This document shows, in pieces, positions 4,019-61,417 of a stretch of 64,000 bases of DNA (its first letter is position 1; every line of letters starts with the position of its first letter). The DNA is taken from positions 14,375-78,374 of the forward strand of contig JASEJE010000015.1 of NCBI GenBank assembly GCA_030024085.1, given 5' to 3'. The DNA comes from Bacillota bacterium. GTDB lineage: Bacteria > Bacillota > SHA-98 > UBA4971. The position numbers and the translations under genes are program-made. Under the pieces are notes generated by a model that worked only from the letters and a program-made list of their open reading frames with translations, was not told the origin of the DNA and ran no database searches.

Positions 4019-4293
4019 AATGACGTCACGAAAACCCGGGATCCGCCCGCTTGTTGTATGATTCTACTCCGGGTATCATAATCCTTCCAGCCCGGCGCAA
4101 AACGCGGACGCCGGGCGCATTCGGTCCGCAACCCGGCTGCTGGTCCCCACCTCGATCGGTCCCTGGCTCACTTGAGTATGGCACGTCGCACACACAACAG
4201 CAAGCTGCGCCTCGCCCTCAGCGAAACGCAGCCTGTCTTCGGACGATTTGTCGGCCTCAAGCCCCCGCAGCCGTGCTCAGGTCGGGGTGCGAC

Positions 4294-4504
4294 CCTAAGT
4301 AGATCGCCACGAATTCGCGCTACTTTTCAGCGCGCAAGTCCTGTCCGGGGTTGCCGGTACTGCCCTCCGGGGACGGCGCGTGCGGTGAGATGCGTTCGAA
4401 TTCGGCGCTCAAGGCTAGCCAAATTCCAGGCGCCCCGCCCTAGCAAGCACCGGCAACCCCAACACCGTCAGGAGAAGGGCGCAAACTCATGGCGCCATAC
4501 TTAG
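4294..4504 (-). repeat. Copy 1 of a structured intergenic repeat family (MITE-like) with TIRs CTAAGTAGATCGCCAC / TGGCGCCATACTTAG
   Basis: Near-identical to the segments at 10840-10984, 12109-12320 and 16348-16533. Contains an internal 13-bp inverted repeat GGGGTTGCCGGTA...CACCGGCAACCCC and a hairpin GAATTCGGC-n-GCCAAATTC. Its terminal CTTAG provides the TAA stop of ORF 4501..5019. Confidence 0.8.
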
Positions 4505-10812: not shown

Positions 10813-10839
10813 GAGAATCCCCCTCCCCGGGCGCAGGCC

Positions 10840-10984
10840 CTAAGCAGATCGCCACAAATCCGCGCTACTTTTCAGCGCGCGAGTCCTGTCCAGCCACCCA
10901 GATTCTCGACGCCCCGCTCTAGCAAGCACCGGCAACCCCAACACCGTCAGGAAAAGTGGCGCAAACTTATGGCGCTATACTTAG
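10840..10984 (-). repeat. Copy 2 of the intergenic repeat family (shorter, internal ~70-nt deletion)
   Basis: TIR-like ends CTAAGCAGATCGCCAC / TGGCGCTATACTTAG. Shares the GCGCTACTTTTCAGCGCGC hairpin and the ...GCAAGCACCGGCAACCCCAACACCGTCAGG... core. Its CTTAG end supplies the TAA stop of ORF 10981..12072. It ends ~30 nt before the amr start codon. Confidence 0.8.
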
Positions 10985-12072
10985 CGTCCGGTAACGACCT
11001 TGTGGACGTACGGCGACGTCATGGCGGCGAGGAGACACCCATAACTCATGGTGAACCTGACCTCGTCTCCCACCCGTATCTCGCGGTCAGCGTCCTCCAC
11101 ATCCAGGATCAGGTGGTCGCTGGACGCCCCAAGCACGTCGATGCCCGACTCGAGCGGCTTGAGGCCCTCCGGGTCGATGTCCTGCCTTCCGCAAGCCAGG
11201 ATGGCCCTCCACCTGATGCCCTTGTCTCTGAACGTGCGCACCTTGCCGAAGGCGTCCTGCCCGATCTCTCCCCGCGGCACCGAAGGCTTCCTCGCCACTT
11301 CGATGGCCTGGGCCGCAAACACGAACGCGTCGAGATGCATGCCGGGAAGAGGCCGTCGGTACGTGACGTCACGGCCCAGGAGCATGGACTCGCCGATACG
11401 AAGCTGGTTTATGCCATGCGGCACCTCGCCGGCCCGGACGAGCGGAATAGAGCTGGAATTGCCGCCTGATATCACCTCGAGGTCAATTCCGAGGTCTCTT
11501 CGGATCCGATCCCGCAAGTGCAAGAGCACGCTCATGTTCTCGTGCGTCGGGATCACCCCGCCATAGCATGCTACGTTTGTCCCGATGCCATGCAGCCTGA
11601 TGCCCTCGACGCGCGCCAGGCGGCCCGCTACATCGGGGGCCGCATCGACCGGCACGCCCTCGCGGAGATCCCCCACGTCCACCATGAGGATGACCCTGTG
11701 CTGGACCCCCCGGGCACGCGCCGCCTCGCCAAGGGCTCTTGCAGTCTCCACCGACGAGATGAGGCTCATGTCGGCCACTCTCACGGCCTCGTCGGCCTCG
11801 CCAAGCATGGGGGCGCGCAAGAGAAGGGTCTCGCAGGAGATGCCGGCCTTACGCATGCGAGCCAGGTTCGCAAGGCGCGAGTCGGCAATCCACCTGACGC
11901 CGCCCCTCAGCATGGCTCTTGCCACCTCGGGGTCGCCGCAGGTCACCTTGGTGACCCCCGCCACCTCGGTGCCGCTCCTCCTGCACATCTCCACGACGAC
12001 CCTGGCGTTCTCCTCGATCTTGTCGAGAGATACCTCCACCCTGGGCGCTACCATGGAAGCTGGGACTGCCAC
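10981..12072 (-). CDS. alanine/ornithine racemase family PLP-dependent enzyme (fold type III)
   Basis: 363 aa with alanine-racemase N-terminal barrel features and a C-terminal beta domain. PLP-Lys context VAGVTKVTCGDP. Confidence 0.65.
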   Translation of the reverse strand: MAVPASMVAPRVEVSLDKIEENARVVVEMCRRSGTEVAGVTKVTCGDPEVARAMLRGGVRWIADSRLANLARMRKAGISCETLLLRAPMLGEADEAVRVADMSLISSVETARALGEAARARGVQHRVILMVDVGDLREGVPVDAAPDVAGRLARVEGIRLHGIGTNVACYGGVIPTHENMSVLLHLRDRIRRDLGIDLEVISGGNSSSIPLVRAGEVPHGINQLRIGESMLLGRDVTYRRPLPGMHLDAFVFAAQAIEVARKPSVPRGEIGQDAFGKVRTFRDKGIRWRAILACGRQDIDPEGLKPLESGIDVLGASSDHLILDVEDADREIRVGDEVRFTMSYGCLLAAMTSPYVHKVVTGR

Positions 12073-12108: not shown

Positions 12109-12320
12109 CTAAGTAGATCACCACAGATTCGCGCTATCTTTCAGCGCGCGGGTCCTCTTCAGGGTTGCCGGTGTTGCACGCCGGGGACGGCGCGCTTGCG
12201 GAGCGCCTCGTTAGAATTTGGCGCTTAAGGCTAGCCAAATTCTTGACGCCCCGTCGTGCAGGCACCGGCAACCCCAACACCGCCAGAAAAAGTGTCGCAA
12301 ATTCATGGCGCCATGCTTAG
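12109..12320 (-). repeat. Copy 3 of the intergenic repeat family (full length)
   Basis: CTAAGTAGATCACCAC ... TGGCGCCATGCTTAG. Internal IR GGGTTGCCGGTG / CACCGGCAACCCC. Hairpin GAATTTGGC-GCTTAAGGCTA-GCCAAATTC. Confidence 0.8.
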
Positions 12321-12369
12321 GTCGCCCGACCCGTGCAAGACCCATGTAAATGGATTTCTGAACCCACAC

Positions 12370-16347: not shown

Positions 16348-16533
16348 GGAACAGAGATCACCGCCGCTTTTCCAGGGGTTGCAGGTGTTGCACTCCGGGG
16401 ACGGCGCGTGCGGTGAGCCTCGTTCGAATTTGGCGCTTAAGGCTAGCCAAATTCCAGGCGCCCCGCCCTAGCAAGCACCGGCAACCCCAGCACCGTCAGG
16501 GAAGATGGCGCAAACTTATGGCGCCATACCTAG
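16348..16533 (-). repeat. Copy 4 of the intergenic repeat family (5' TIR degenerate)
   Basis: Shares GGGGTTGCAGGTGTTGCAC...GAATTTGGCGCTTAAGGCTAGCCAAATTC...CACCGGCAACCCCAGCACCGTCAGG...TGGCGCCATACCTAG with copies 1 and 3. The left end (AGAGATCACCGCCGCTTTTCCAG) is degenerate. Confidence 0.7.
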
Positions 16534-56793: not shown

Positions 56794-56869
56794 TGGAGCC
56801 CACGGCCGGAATCGAACCGGCGACCCCATCCTTACCATGGATGTGCTCTGCCTGCTGAGCTACATGGGC
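56794..56869 (-). tRNA. tRNA-Thr (anticodon GGU), CCA encoded
   Basis: Manual cloverleaf: acceptor GCCCATG/CGTGGGC. Anticodon stem CATCC/GGATG. Loop AUGGUAA. T-arm GCCGG-TTCGATT-CCGGC. Confidence 0.85.
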
Positions 56870-56883
56870 TCCTAAACATGACC

Positions 56884-56960
56884 TGGAGCGGGAAACGGGA
56901 CTCGAACCCGCGACATTCAGCTTGGAAGGCTGACGCTCTAGCCAACTGAGCTATTCCCGC
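56884..56960 (-). tRNA. tRNA-Gly (anticodon UCC), CCA encoded
   Basis: Acceptor GCGGGAA/TTCCCGC. D-arm GCTC-AGTTGGCTA-GAGC. Anticodon stem TCAGC/GCTGA. Loop CUUCCAA. Confidence 0.85.
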
Positions 56961-56975
56961 TCGACGTAAAATGCC

Positions 56976-57061
56976 TGGTGGAGAGGGGTGGATTCGAACC
57001 ACCGAAGGCTGAGCCAACAGATTTACAGTCTGCCCCCTTTGACCAGCTCGGGAACCTCTCC
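56976..57061 (-). tRNA. tRNA-Tyr (anticodon GUA), class II long variable arm, CCA encoded
   Basis: Acceptor GGAGAGG/CCTCTCC. Anticodon stem GCAGA/TCTGT. Loop CUGUAAA. Variable arm TGGCTCAGCCTTCGG. Confidence 0.85.
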
Positions 57062-57120
57062 ACTAAACCTGTGCGTGTAGGGACCGACACCCTCAGCCCA
57101 GCGTCCCATGCCGCTTTTAT

Positions 57121-57149
57121 ATATTAGCATAGAGGTGCGGCGTACGCAA
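57121..57149 (-). promoter_or_regulatory. sigma-A-type promoter of the tRNA Tyr-Gly-Thr operon (TTGCGT-17-TAATAT)
   Basis: Minus strand: TTGCGT, a 17-nt spacer, then TAATAT, ~55 nt upstream of tRNA-Tyr. A direct repeat CGGCAATTGGCAC x2 lies just upstream at 57150-57181. Confidence 0.45.
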
Positions 57150-57355
57150 GTGCCAATTGCCGCTTGGTGCCAATTGCCGTTTGGGGGCGCGTGTAGCAAT
57201 TGTGGCGCCCAGGGGTTACCTCCACTTTCTGGACAGCGGCATGTCAGGCTACCTTCGCAGGCGATTCCACGGTTTGGTCGCCTGTGAGGCTGGGCTCACC
57301 GCGACCAGGTTGCCCGGCCGGGTCGGTCCGCTGGAGGCCACCCCCGGGCTGCTCC

Positions 57356-57701
57356 TGGATGTCTACGGACCACCCTCGCAGCCTCCATGACCGAGCGGAC
57401 GGTAAGGTGGTCTGTTTGCGACCATGATTAGCATACATTTGGCCGCCTGCCTGCCACTTGGGCAGACATACTGGTCGCCACGAGACCACCTTCGAGCGCG
57501 CGGCGGTGAGGGTGGTCGCTGCGAAGGTGGGTCGCGCGCGCTCAAGGCTGAACGTGAAGTGGTCGTCTGGAAACCACATTCCCGCGCTTCCTGGTCCTCG
57601 ACGGACCACCTCTCGCGACTCGCGTCTATAGGTGGATCCAGTCTGAGCAGGTCGCTCGCGAACATGGTCCCTGGCTGGCCACCCCGGCGAGCACAGCTGG
57701 C
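57356..57701 (+). repeat. three tandem degenerate ~115-120-nt repeat units, each with a GACCACC...GGTGGTC hairpin
   Basis: Units start at 57356, 57472 and 57592 with TGGatgtCtACGGACCACCcTCGCaGCc, TGGTCgcCaCGaGACCACCtTCGaGCG and TGGTCctCgACGGACCACCtcTCGCGaC respectively. Confidence 0.7.
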
Positions 57702-57861
57702 TATCTTCTGACCATTCCAACGCGTGTTCTGGTCGCGTCGTCAGCACTTTGCCTTGTCCAGAGTTACGTTTCGACAGGACTTGCGCCAGCCACGTCGAAA
57801 CCATGGGCGTATCCCAGAGGGAAGGTACTCTTGCTGAGAGTAGAAAAGGAGGCAACGATCG

Positions 57862-59331
57862 ATGCAGGTAGATCTCTCTTTCTGCAGACGGGAGTTTCCC
57901 GCACTCGACCTGCGGGTGAACGGACACATGGCGGCGTACTTCGACGGCCCCGGCGGCACACAGGTCCCGGCCCGGGTGATCAAGGCGATAACCCGGTACT
58001 ACCAGGAAGCGAACGCGAACTGCCACGGTGAATTCGTGACGAGCCGCCGCACTGACGGGACTATAGCCGCTGCGAGGCAGACCGTGGCCGAGATGCTGGG
58101 GGCTGCCTCGCCGGACGAGATCGCCTTCGGCCCCAACATGACCACACTCAATTTCGCCCTCTCGCGCGCCCTGGGGCGCGCACTCACGCCCGGCGACGAG
58201 ATCGTCATCACCGACCTCGATCATGAGGCAAACCGCAGCCCCTGGCAGGCCCTGGAGGAAAGGGGCGTGGTGGTACGGTCCGTCCGTGTGAACCTGCCCG
58301 AGTGCACGCTCGACTACGACGACCTGGAGAGGGCGGTCAACGCGCGGACCAGGGTGGTGGCTCTGGGATACGCGTCCAACGCGGTCGGAACCATCAACGA
58401 CGTGAAGCGCGCGGCCTCGCTCGCCCACTCCGTCGGGGCGGTGTGCGTTGTCGACGCGGTCCACTATGCGTTGCATGGAGCCATCGACGTGCGCGACATC
58501 GGCTGCGATTTCCTGCTGTGCTCCGCGTACAAGTTCTTCGGGCCGCACGTTGGCATCCTTTACGGTCGCCGCGATGCGTTCGAAAGGCTCGCCGCGTACA
58601 GGGTGCGCCCCCAGAGCTCGAAACCGCCGCACAAGATCGAGACCGGAACGCTGAACCACGAGGGCATAGCCGGCGTCATCGCCGCGATAGAGTTCATCGC
58701 GAGCCTTGGGGCTGCCCTGCCCCGGGGGGCGACCGCTGGCTTTCCTCCCATGGACAAAGGGAAATCCGGTGAATACACGACAGCAGCGGCCGGCGGTAGC
58801 CAGCCACCCAGCGCTCCTCATCTGGACGGGTCCGCTTCGAGCGGGTGGGGACGGGCGGGTCAACTGCAGGCAGGCGGACTCGGGACGCCAGCCGATGCTG
58901 CCACGTCCAAAGCCGCCCGAGATAAGGCCGGCGACGCAGAGATGGCGGAGATCCCGGCTCGGAGACCGCACATACTCGCAGGCTTCACCGCCATCGAGCT
59001 CTATGAAAGGCCGCTCTTCGCCATGCTCATGGACGGCCTGGCCTCGATTCCCGGAGTCACGGTGTATGGGCTTCCCGCCGCCGTTGGCGAACGGACCCCG
59101 ACGGTGTCCTTCAGCGTAGCTGGCAAACACCCCGCAGATGTCGCCAGGTTCCTCGGGGACCGCGGCATCTTCGTATGGCACGGCGATTTCTATGCCACCA
59201 CCCTCATCGAGCGCCTCGGCCGCGCCGAGAGCGGCGGCGTGGTGCGGGTGGGCATAGCGCCCTACAACACCACCGAAGAAGTCAGCCGGCTGGTGGAAGC
59301 CCTCAAGGAGTGCGCCGGCCTCTTCTCCTGA
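57862..59331 (+). CDS. class-V aminotransferase-fold PLP enzyme (cysteine desulfurase / selenocysteine lyase family) with ~90-aa low-complexity insertion
   Basis: RBS AAAGGAGG. PLP-lysine motif LLCSAYKFFGPHVG. HEANRSPW. Insertion AALPRGATAGFPPMDKGKSG...DAEMAEIP lies between the conserved blocks. Confidence 0.75.
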   Translation: MQVDLSFCRREFPALDLRVNGHMAAYFDGPGGTQVPARVIKAITRYYQEANANCHGEFVTSRRTDGTIAAARQTVAEMLGAASPDEIAFGPNMTTLNFALSRALGRALTPGDEIVITDLDHEANRSPWQALEERGVVVRSVRVNLPECTLDYDDLERAVNARTRVVALGYASNAVGTINDVKRAASLAHSVGAVCVVDAVHYALHGAIDVRDIGCDFLLCSAYKFFGPHVGILYGRRDAFERLAAYRVRPQSSKPPHKIETGTLNHEGIAGVIAAIEFIASLGAALPRGATAGFPPMDKGKSGEYTTAAAGGSQPPSAPHLDGSASSGWGRAGQLQAGGLGTPADAATSKAARDKAGDAEMAEIPARRPHILAGFTAIELYERPLFAMLMDGLASIPGVTVYGLPAAVGERTPTVSFSVAGKHPADVARFLGDRGIFVWHGDFYATTLIERLGRAESGGVVRVGIAPYNTTEEVSRLVEALKECAGLFS

Positions 59332-60478: not shown

Positions 60479-60513
60479 GTGTACCTCTCTTCTCTCTCTT
60501 TCAGCTAGCAAAG

Positions 60514-60542
60514 AGGGGGTGTCAGCCGAGCGCTGACACCCC
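60514..60542 (-). terminator. perfect 12-bp GC hairpin (GGGGGTGTCAGC-gagc-GCTGACACCCCC) followed by TCTTTGCT on the minus strand; terminator or attenuator between ORF 60670..60969 and the helicase
   Basis: Inverted repeat read directly from the sequence. Only ~35 nt upstream of the helicase start codon, so it could instead be a regulatory hairpin. Confidence 0.35.
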
Positions 60543-60669
60543 CTGGCAGCTGTACAGCATTTCGCGTCTTCGCGGGTATCTTATCACATTTGCGGACCAA
60601 CAGCAACGACGATTTCGCGCGACGACGATTTCGCGCGATGGACACGGCCCTATGTCGACGATTCCGACC

Positions 60670-60969
60670 TTACGGAGACGTCAGCATTTTCACGATCTCC
60701 TCGAAGATCTCCCGCGCCTTCGCGGCGTCTTCACTTTCCCTCAAGGCGTCGATGTTGAGGGATACGGTCTTCCCCTGGCGAATCTCGCCGTCCTTCTCCC
60801 AGTCGGGAAGAGACACGTGAAGACGCCCGGCCCTGGGATACCACCTGAGCTTGTTCCTCTCGGTCGTGACCTCAACCGGCGTTTCCTCTTCCCAGTATCG
60901 CGTTGCCGTTATCGACTCCTCCTCGCCTTCCCTGACGGGGTTCTGCCTGCCGCCAACCCAGGTCCCCAC
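60670..60969 (-). CDS. hypothetical protein (99 aa, acidic; no motif recognised)
   Basis: Clean ORF between tRNA-Thr(UGU) and the hairpin. Not identifiable from sequence alone. Confidence 0.35.
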   Translation of the reverse strand: MGTWVGGRQNPVREGEEESITATRYWEEETPVEVTTERNKLRWYPRAGRLHVSLPDWEKDGEIRQGKTVSLNIDALRESEDAAKAREIFEEIVKMLTSP

Positions 60970-61160
60970 TGTTCAGGCACCGGGCATGCCGACTCTCCAC
61001 GATCGCGGCTGGGCGAGCGCTTCTTACAGCCCGAGTTACAGGCTAGATTGCCCGCCGGACACGCGCCTCAACACCACTATAAAGAAACGCGTTCTCAGCC
61101 GATTCTCACCGGAGCGGGTTCCAGGGGCCACCGGCCGGGCCCTGGAACCCGCCAAATAGC

Positions 61161-61235
61161 TGGAGCCGACGGTGGGACTCGAACCCACAACCTGCGGATT
61201 ACAAATCAGCTGCTCTACCGTTGAGCTACGTCGGC
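61161..61235 (-). tRNA. tRNA-Thr (anticodon UGU), CCA encoded; one U-C mismatch in the anticodon stem
   Basis: Acceptor GCCGACG/CGTCGGC. D-arm GCTC-AACGGTA-GAGC. Anticodon loop UUUGUAA. T-arm GTGGG-TTCGAGT-CCCAC. Stem GCTGA/TCCGC has a mismatch at position 29:41. Confidence 0.7.
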
Positions 61236-61417
61236 ATCAGGACTCGTGTCTTCGATTTCGTTCCCTGATAAGATCTTAGCCGCTCACGGCTCCCATGTCA
61301 ACCCGCACGAGCCCGGCGAGCCCGGCCGGATGCACATACACTACCTGGCGTTCAACCGGGCGCATATGCACTACCGGGGTACATGCACGAGTGGGTGCGC
61401 CTCCGCCCAGCCCCGGA

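Follow-up and report, generated by a model that had tools for sequence, protein, structure and literature searches.

Judged by its sequence, the region at 57184–57746 of the window (the whole 64,000-nt stretch of DNA that was analysed) is one copy, of ~560 bases with its leader included, of a dispersed non-coding repeat family in uncultured Bacillota. The family consists of dispersed, uncatalogued palindrome arrays, and the reading we prefer, to which we assign a probability of roughly 0.45, is that the window carries a decaying copy of an array that works as phased protein-binding DNA. Each copy comprises a leader followed by a tandem array of 105–120-bp units, each unit built by three 17-bp palindromes whose starts lie 32, 32, and then 41 or 52 bp apart. 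Each palindrome would be bound as duplex DNA by a symmetric dimeric protein; spacings of 3, 4, and 5 helical turns would bring all dimers onto one face of the helix, and dimers so aligned could assemble into a cooperative or wrapped nucleoprotein array. Candidate binders are a host chromatin or partition-type protein, or a factor that spreads the element.

Architecture of the palindrome array

The array lies in a spacer of ~800 bp between a divergent, minus-strand tRNA operon and a plus-strand aminotransferase gene. The tRNA genes (tRNA-Thr, tRNA-Gly, and tRNA-Tyr, 56794–57061, minus strand) are followed on the minus strand by rpmG, secE, nusG, ribosomal protein genes, and rpoB and rpoC, the last two named from their position and size. 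The aminotransferase, a class-V enzyme resembling cysteine desulfurases, is encoded at 57862–59331 on the plus strand behind a strong ribosome-binding site (57845–57852). A DEAD-box helicase and a sigma factor are further neighbours in the window.

The original prediction described three tandem, degenerate repeats of ~118 nt in this spacer, each with a GACCACC...GGTGGTC hairpin. The strings it quoted are all present: the units begin at 57356 (TGGATGTCTACGGACCACCCTCGCAGC), 57472 (TGGTCGCCACGAGACCACCTTCGAGCGC), and 57592 (TGGTCCTCGACGGACCACCTCTCGCGAC); the left parts of the inverted repeats, GACCACC, are found at 57368, 57484, and 57604, and the right parts at 57406 and 57511 (GGTGGTC) and at 57630 (GGTGGATCC). 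The additional pair of unit 2, GAGCGCGCG/CGCGCGCTC, the 95-aa open reading frame (57424–57711), and the ribosome-binding site near 57845 are likewise in the sequence. The tandem repeat is real. Tandem Repeats Finder, at a minimum score of 30, returned no ~118-nt repeat because the repeat is too degenerate, and shuffle tests were therefore used instead. The alignment of the three units has 36 invariant columns versus 18.9 ± 4.0 in dinucleotide shuffles, of which 0 of 200 reach 36, and versus 19.5 ± 4.8 (maximum 28) in 40 real-sequence controls made of consecutive blocks elsewhere in the window. Pairwise unit alignments are weakly significant (z = 3–4.7), with the signal limited to a 27-nt head, and the best ungapped autocorrelation lags of the array are 236 and 120. 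The array is longer than predicted, with four units and a terminal site, and its basic unit is smaller; each GACCACC...GGTGGTC pair combines the right arm of a C site with the left arm of the A site that follows.

The array is built from a 17-bp palindrome, TGGTC-N7-GACCA. Among sites, TGG and CCA are nearly invariant, whereas the sequence of the 7-nt centre and of the linkers is free to vary. Allowing up to three mismatches in the ten arm positions, 12 sites occur in 621 nt, a density that drops to 1.86 per 621 nt outside the array region of the window. At one mismatch or fewer, the 64-kb window has eight sites, six of them within 57291–57681, where shuffles give 2.3 per whole window; the three perfect sites of the window are all inside the array. 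Consecutive spacings of the 12 sites are 33, 32, 52, 32, 32, 88, 32, 41, 32, 33, and 32 bp, so that spacings of 32–33 bp make up 8 of 11; sites placed at random would give 0.42 (at most 5 in any of 5000 trials). Comparison with better-preserved copies revealed one more site, the thirteenth, in degenerate form at 57513. The 13 sites span 57291–57746 as four units and the terminal site, each unit having the order A, 15 nt, B, 15 nt, C, and then 24 or 35 nt, with three sites per 105–120 bp. The A sites start at 57291, 57408, 57513, and 57633; the units as originally drawn start at C, the third site of each triplet.

The features are given below, the palindromic sites without strand; L081 and L089 are the closest relatives at the same locus, and L130, L109, and L138 are copies at other loci.

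57184–57290, plus strand: non-repetitive leader of ~100 nt that accompanies the array, with 68–73% identity to the pre-array sequence of L130/L109
57291–57307: site A1, TGGGC-tcaccgc-GACCA, 1 mismatch; homologous site in L130, L109, and L138-type copies
57324–57340: site B1, CGGTC-cgctgga-GGCCA, 2 mismatches; 33 bp from A1
57356–57372: site C1, TGGAT-gtctacg-GACCA, 2 mismatches; 32 bp from B1; start of unit 1 in the original prediction; followed by a linker of the long type, 35 nt (52-bp spacing class)
57376–57611, plus strand: two-unit block absent in L081 and L089, exactly 236 nt in pairwise and three-way alignments
57408–57424: site A2, TGGTC-tgtttgc-GACCA, perfect
57440–57456: site B2, TGGCC-gcctgcc-TGCCA, 3 mismatches with TGG/CCA retained; 32 bp from A2
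57472–57488: site C2, TGGTC-gccacga-GACCA, perfect; same 17-mer in L130; start of the original unit 2
57513–57529: site A3, TGGTC-gctgcga-AGGTG, degenerate, 5 mismatches and no right arm; 41 bp from C2; counterpart intact in L130 and L109; followed by a 15-nt insertion
57560–57576: site B3, TGGTC-gtctgga-AACCA, 1 mismatch
57592–57608: site C3, TGGTC-ctcgacg-GACCA, perfect; start of the original unit 3
57633–57649: site A4, TGGAT-ccagtct-GAGCA, 3 mismatches; 41 bp from C3
57665–57681: site B4, TGGTC-cctggct-GGCCA, 1 mismatch; unchanged in both L081 and L089
57698–57714: site C4, TGGCT-atcttct-GACCA, 2 mismatches; 33 bp from B4
57730–57746: terminal site, TGGTC-gcgtcgt-CAGCA, 2 mismatches; 32 bp from C4; conserved in L081 and L089

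Copies at other loci and loss of units in the closest relatives

The metagenome collection was scanned with a pattern of three sites, the first perfect and the next two of the form TGG-N11-CCA at steps of 32–33 bp; 36 loci matched, about half of them simple or coding tandem repeats. At least 16 contigs carry the grammar of the window in long runs (for instance 32,32,41,32,32,41,32,32,52); these arrays reach 20 or more sites and have a GC content of 0.52–0.65; among 67 complete units on metagenome contigs, the pattern (32,32,41) occurs 34 times and (32,32,52) 17 times. Because a profile of the unit matches both strands in nhmmer and gives no orientation, arrays were oriented by homology of leader and linkers. 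Two arrays, those of L130 and L109, align colinearly with the array of the window, the ~100-nt leader included, at 77–82% identity, yet their flanks differ from those of the window and have neither tRNAs nor an aminotransferase gene; array and leader together thus constitute a dispersed repeat.

A second subfamily (L138, L140, L121, L123, L133, L136, L137, L131, L139, and L143) is a ~735-nt element with defined left and right ends, whose copies are 73–91% identical. Their neighbours are unrelated genes, which encode a PHP-domain protein, a thioesterase, a PD-(D/E)XK nuclease, and an RNase H-like protein, and into one copy the gene of an IS630-type transposase has inserted. In the low-GC subfamilies (L116, L142, L134, L110, and L125), arms and spacing are kept, but the linkers bear no relation to those found in high-GC copies. 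The arrays of these subfamilies occupy intergenic regions, as can be seen in L116 and L142 and likewise in the window, and the DnaK encoded on one such contig has its best relatives among proteins of uncultured Bacillota MAGs. As to copy number, the 64-kb window has one 13-site array, and a related metagenome has 13 array contigs with at least six distinct flanks. No perfect site was found in ~700 kb of other bacterial loci, a BLAST search of the array against plasmids gave no match, and neither did an exact 23-mer of the array in JGI metagenomes. The literature yielded nothing on the motif, nor on tandem repeats in Limnochordia. A viral scan with the three-site pattern gave 15 matches, 12 of which are coding repeats of 11–12 aa or chance; the remaining three (L098, L100, and L102) are non-coding look-alikes.

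At the locus itself, a search of GTDB genomes with the aminotransferase found no close relative, and all 80 loci were free of sites; a protein database gave access to closer relatives. The closest are two syntenic MAG contigs, L081 and L089, with an aminotransferase 82% identical and other genes 96–100% identical to those of the window. The closest relatives have lost two units: the number of units changes through recombination between sites. The junction of the 236-nt block falls in ACGGACCAC, a string common to sites C1 and C3, and since two dispersed copies, L130 and L109, contain the block, it is the ancestral state and L081 and L089 are deletion carriers. The block was also considered as a MITE and rejected: it is without terminal inverted repeats, and its 9–10-nt direct repeat, ACGGACCAC(C), belongs to the repeated site.

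The same indel bears on the possibility that the region encodes protein, either as the 95-aa frame or as a repeat protein of 11-aa or 35-aa period. Frames are open on both strands, and many look-alike matches in the collection scans are true 33-bp coding repeats; here, however, all six phases are open only through the high GC content, no frame survives the 236-nt indel, neither the prevailing 32-bp spacing nor the 116–120-bp units are multiples of three, as had been noted of the period, and Pfam gives no match. The coding reading is, on this sequence evidence, already refuted and retains next to no probability. The frame appears to be the by-product it had been taken for, coding being excluded by the same periods, indel, and Pfam result.

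The array shows no sign of constraint at this locus. Between the window and L081/L089, the arms differ at 11.4% of positions versus 10.3% for other positions (p = 0.83), and the divergence of the spacer, which is 89–92% identical, is no lower than that of four-fold degenerate sites, at 89–97% identity. This drift, the four-fold-like divergence, and the deletion in L081/L089 lead us to regard the copy as dispensable here, and by sequence comparison it looks dispensable for both the aminotransferase gene and the tRNA operon, and decaying. More distant relatives, with aminotransferase identities of 65–79% (L082, L083, L086–L088, and L090), have no sites and share with the window only two islands, 57088–57178 and 57772–57869, both of them flanking promoter islands; the second, proximal to the aminotransferase gene, lies downstream of the array.

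These comparisons make it very unlikely that the sites are a local operator array for a regulator dedicated to the aminotransferase gene, the divergent tRNA-rpmG-secE-nusG operon, or both. The position would suit an operator, between two divergent promoters, with the first site starting ~140 bp away from the tRNA promoter's -35 element and the last ending 27 nt short of the conserved proximal block. Homologous arrays nonetheless adjoin unrelated genes, the orthologous spacers of relatives are free of sites, no regulator gene is adjacent, and two units are gone in L081 and L089.

A selfish or neutral repeat with no host function is a possible reading, if an unlikely one. It could be a non-autonomous mobile or recombination-spread element of the REP/BIME or MITE kind, or a VNTR in a neutral spacer, and arm conservation would then reflect a requirement for copying only, with copies decaying once inserted. 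The near-neutral drift of the arms, the tolerated loss of units, the many degenerate sites of the window copy, and the dispersed copies with defined ends and unrelated flanks are all consistent with it, as are the breaks of assemblies inside arrays and the presence of another, MITE-like family in the same genome. Against it, neither the ends of the array nor the surroundings of the 236-nt block show terminal inverted repeats or a target-site duplication, and the exact spacing grammar and the arms survive where the linkers of the subfamilies have diverged completely. Such conserved grammar requires sustained selection on the geometry, which a hairpin-recognising transposase would not obviously impose. 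The selfish reading would overlap with that of phased protein-binding DNA if the selecting protein were the mobilising protein.

Duplex DNA or transcript

Between dispersed copies, the arms are 83–88% identical versus 52–60% for the centres and 58–66% for the linkers (Fisher p = 1e-3 and 3e-8), with the caveat that the arms themselves help to anchor the alignments. Spacings at 17 loci fall into classes of 32 (121 times), 33 (12), 41 (35), 42 (3), 52 (9), 64 (3), 73 (9), and 84 bp (12). Among periods of 8–13 bp, the best common spacing period is 10.35–10.4 bp (R = 0.89–0.90), a fit to three independent classes only (32, 41, and 52), the longer ones being explicable by missed sites. The helical repeat of B-DNA is ~10.4 bp. 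Most probably, a symmetric dimer recognises the palindromes as duplex DNA, and all sites lie on the same helical face. The suggestion in the original prediction that the repeats are protein-binding sites thus gains from the conservation of arms over centres and linkers and from the whole-turn spacings, except that the sites belong to a dispersed copy and not to a local operator set.

Its other suggestion, a triplicated cis-regulatory leader RNA or thermosensor of the csd-like gene, is part of a broader alternative, in which a promoter in the leader drives a transcript with hairpins of the form UGGUC-N7-GACCA. The transcript would bind or sponge an RNA-binding protein through these hairpins, or would serve the downstream gene as a long 5' leader. 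The leader is conserved along with the array, and in all copies that allow a determination (5 of 5) the gene upstream of the leader is divergently transcribed. The downstream gene has the same orientation as the array in the window, in L139, and probably in L131, an arrangement that would accommodate a transcript. RNA folding is somewhat better than that of shuffles (z = -1.8 for the plus and -2.7 for the minus strand), but the gain is modest and both strands score alike. Double changes in the arms occur at about the rate expected for independent arms, with the exception of the innermost pair, in which complementary changes account for 25 of the 28, the pattern of a hairpin.

The remaining tests argue against a transcript. 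In Rfam, cmscan returned only tRNAs or chance matches for the spacer (E <= 10) and for six well-preserved arrays (E <= 1), so that the search proposed originally has identified no RNA family in either. There was no covariation support either: the covariation term of RNAalifold on six copies is +7.3, a penalty. Among oriented arm mismatches at 111 distinct sites, 42 are compatible with G·U and 39 are A·C (p = 0.82), without bias to either strand, and at many sites only TGG/CCA is left, not enough to form a hairpin. Scans of the spacer and two leaders found no promoter-like sigma-70 site and, as a terminator, a single weak hairpin (57684–57700) no better than shuffles. The spacing tracks the 10.4-bp helical repeat of DNA, and the block conserved with the aminotransferase gene is downstream of the array. 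Taken as a whole, a multi-hairpin RNA appears improbable. The thermosensor proposal in particular is not borne out: besides the blank Rfam search and the lack of covariation or G·U bias, the array is missing upstream of the same gene in relatives at 65–79% identity, has lost two units in the closest ones, and stands beside unrelated genes elsewhere. One false lead is thereby removed, as the repeats before the cysteine-desulfurase-like gene appear not to be a riboswitch or thermosensor specific to that gene.

Several other identities were tried and set aside. For a riboswitch, T-box, or RNA thermometer, neither an Rfam match nor conservation with the gene was found, and compensatory changes with G·U tolerance were likewise wanting. 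A tRNA pseudogene or T-box had come to mind because of the geometry of a 5-bp stem with a 7-nt loop and because of AGGGTGGTC; ARAGORN, the Rfam tRNA model, and the T-box model were all blank. Sigma-54 enhancer sites, LexA boxes, and DnaA boxes, compared by eye with consensus sequences, do not fit.

Comparison with known repeats and operators

REP and BIME elements of Enterobacteria and Pseudomonas are short palindromes that cluster outside genes (PMC2817692, PMC3333891, PMC3733652), can exceed 100 copies per genome (PMC2817692), carry a GTAG or CGTC tetranucleotide at one end of the palindrome (PMC3733652), and have been reported to bind several proteins (PMC2817692, PMC3333891, PMC3733652). 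The present arrays resemble them as GC-rich extragenic palindromes in regularly spaced composites, at many loci and in variable copy number. They differ in the symmetric 5-7-5 core, in the strict three-site unit of 105–116 bp with its leader, and in the colinear copying of whole multi-unit arrays between loci. Counted up to 8 nt from 171 strong sites, the tetranucleotides GTAG, CTAC, CGTC, and GACG come to 3, 3, 13, and 11; the near absence of the GTAG and CGTC tags also speaks against the selfish reading.

Centromeres of the sopC/ParB type offer a second comparison. The sopC locus of the F plasmid has 12 direct 43-bp repeats, and SopB binds to the 16-bp inverted repeat that each of them carries (PMC3177203). 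Tandem direct repeats with palindromes are common to both systems; the sopC-binding protein is dimeric and forms a large nucleoprotein complex, and such binding is predicted here. Unlike sopC, the arrays are chromosomal, occupy many loci, have three sites per unit, and are without adjoining par genes. No partition or replication-initiator gene, as expected next to a centromere or iteron array, is adjacent to the window array, and the other copies are flanked by assorted housekeeping genes; among the neighbours scanned, no DNA-binding gene is consistently next to the copies.

A further geometrical parallel is found in operators of the Lrp/AsnC family, such as the three regularly spaced palindromic boxes of Ss-LrpB (PMC1802622, PMC2995911). 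Both these operators and the arrays have palindromic boxes of 15–17 bp in triplets, spaced by whole helical turns, and triplets in this arrangement support cooperative binding with wrapping of the DNA. At pap, six Lrp sites are spaced by 32 bp. The arrays differ in that their triplets recur, up to seven or more times, and are dispersed, with an unrelated motif, whereas an Lrp/AsnC operator is a single locus beside the regulated or the regulator gene. GntR-family operators include the FadR type, similar to TGGTC-C-GACCA, and the dre of DasR/NagR, TGGTC-TA-GACCA. The half-site TGGTC/GACCA of the arrays is that of the FadR/DasR operators, but the spacer of 7 nt at every site, compared with 1–2 nt in GntR operators, is off by five bases and puts the half-sites half a helical turn apart from that geometry, and FadR/DasR operators are single sites, not arrays.

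As intergenic tandem repeats whose unit number varies between close strains, the arrays recall the STAR elements of S. aureus and the mycobacterial MIRU-VNTRs, which differ in sequence and architecture and are without palindrome triplets. CRISPR arrays have repeats of 23–47 bp with unique spacers of similar length and usually cas genes nearby. A CRISPR was rejected here, as the core of the repeat measures 17 bp, copies share their 15-nt and 24-nt linkers, and no cas domain was found among the neighbours scanned.

Going beyond the preferred reading, we propose tentatively, as a possibility on the doubtful side, that the arrays are an undescribed class of leader-plus-array repeats, in which a triplet per ten helical turns would support a nucleoprotein fibre with a dedicated DNA-binding protein in Limnochordia-like Bacillota. 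If so, the fibre would be a chromatin-like or centromere-like structuring system and not a REP variant. On the preferred reading, an uncultured Bacillota lineage common in digesters and composts would carry many highly regular arrays, with three dimer sites per ten helical turns repeated up to seven or more times, in a family present in no repeat or RNA catalogue. The arrays may serve as a handle for finding a new nucleoid-structuring, partition, or mobilising protein, for strain typing through the number of units, and for understanding why MAG assemblies of these organisms fragment.

Simple tandem arrays of the same palindrome, at 32 or 33 bp, are also carried by unrelated contigs. On a mobile-element contig (L132), a three-copy 33-bp array of GTGGTC-N7-GACCAC is found 3.3 kb away from the gene for a ParB_N/HTH_ParB protein; the mobile element with this simple array encodes a helicase, a primase, and the ParB-like protein. 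The simple arrays on unrelated contigs hint at a widespread protein family of this specificity.

Probable promoter regions on both sides of the array, and the aminotransferase linker

57121-57149, minus strand: candidate promoter of the tRNA-rpmG-secE-nusG operon, assigned by eye
57150-57183: 17-bp tandem duplication in perfect register (GTGCCAATTGCCGCTTG/GTGCCAATTGCCGTTTG)
57773-57799: conserved block GACAGGACTTGCGCCAGCCACGTCGAA, upstream of the aminotransferase gene
58714-59020: Ala/Gly/Ser/Pro-rich linker of the aminotransferase, residues about 285-385

On the tRNA side of the palindrome array, a TTGCGT hexamer (57144-57149) is separated by a 17-nt spacer from TGC-TAATAT (57121-57129), and both lie within an island kept in all examined relatives. 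Judged from its sequence, this element is likely the promoter of the tRNA-rpmG-secE-nusG operon; it was not among the sites listed by a consensus promoter scan. The 17-bp duplication is situated immediately upstream of the -35 element, and its sequence is present as a single copy in the closest syntenic relatives, the MAG contigs L081 and L089.

On the opposite side, almost every relative at 65-82% identity keeps the block GACAGGACTTGCGCCAGCCACGTCGAA upstream of the aminotransferase gene; the most distant one, L087, keeps just part of it. Its sequence is similar to that of sigma-H-type promoters (AGGAnTT and, after about 13 nt, GAA), and the GTCGAA inside it is Spo0A-box-like. In the clade of the window, the block is bracketed by the inverted repeat GTTTCGAC/GTCGAAAC. 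The downstream product has an Aminotran_5 match in two stretches divided by the Ala/Gly/Ser/Pro-rich linker, which exceeds that of the relatives in length; the protein has 489 residues, against 449-459 in close relatives and 410-440 in most others.

Palindrome arrays on other contigs

L102 = L132, 355-437: simple array
L127, 1103-1185: simple array
L141, 694-842: simple array
L112, 766-910: simple array
L117, 229-373: simple array
L119, 6-86: simple array
L138, 1341-2375: IS630-type transposase gene (DDE_3 and HTH domains)
L098, 5059-5400: look-alike array, phage contig
L100, 12660-12842: look-alike array, phage contig

The simple arrays, found by motif scans on contigs with a GC content of 0.28-0.64, are built from the same palindrome as the window array, (G)TGGTC-N7-GACCA(C), in three to five copies with a period of 32 or 33 bp and unrelated linkers. 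The L132 array adjoins genes for an AAA_25 helicase and a CHC2/Toprim primase, with a ParB_N/HTH_ParB gene 3.3 kb away. In L138, a contig carrying a copy from the dispersed family, the transposase gene has array segments on both sides (452-1263 and 2414-2606), suggesting that it was inserted into an array.

Phage contig L098 bears an array of GGTGGTM-N7-KACCACC palindromes at its end, next to a DUF739 gene and a putative tRNA gene (tRNA-like by reverse-strand translation). Unlike L098, phage contig L100 combines 11-bp AAGTGGTCCAC repeats with GTGGTCCATGGACCAC palindromes, close to terminase genes.

Further elements of the window

60670-60969, minus strand: 99-aa ORF
61161-61235, minus strand: tRNA Thr-TGT, the fourth tRNA
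4293-4504, 10838-10988, 12109-12323 and 16371-16533: four copies of a MITE-like repeat

The fourth tRNA sits in a 900-bp gap (60512-61417) between a DEAD-box helicase gene and a sigma-factor gene, together with the 99-aa ORF, for which a Pfam search gave no match. The copies of the MITE-like repeat, ~160-215 nt long and 82-90% identical, have the termini CTAAGTAG...CTACTTAG and contain the inverted repeat GGGTTGCCGGTG/CACCGGCAACCC; metagenome contig L113 carries a relative of this repeat.
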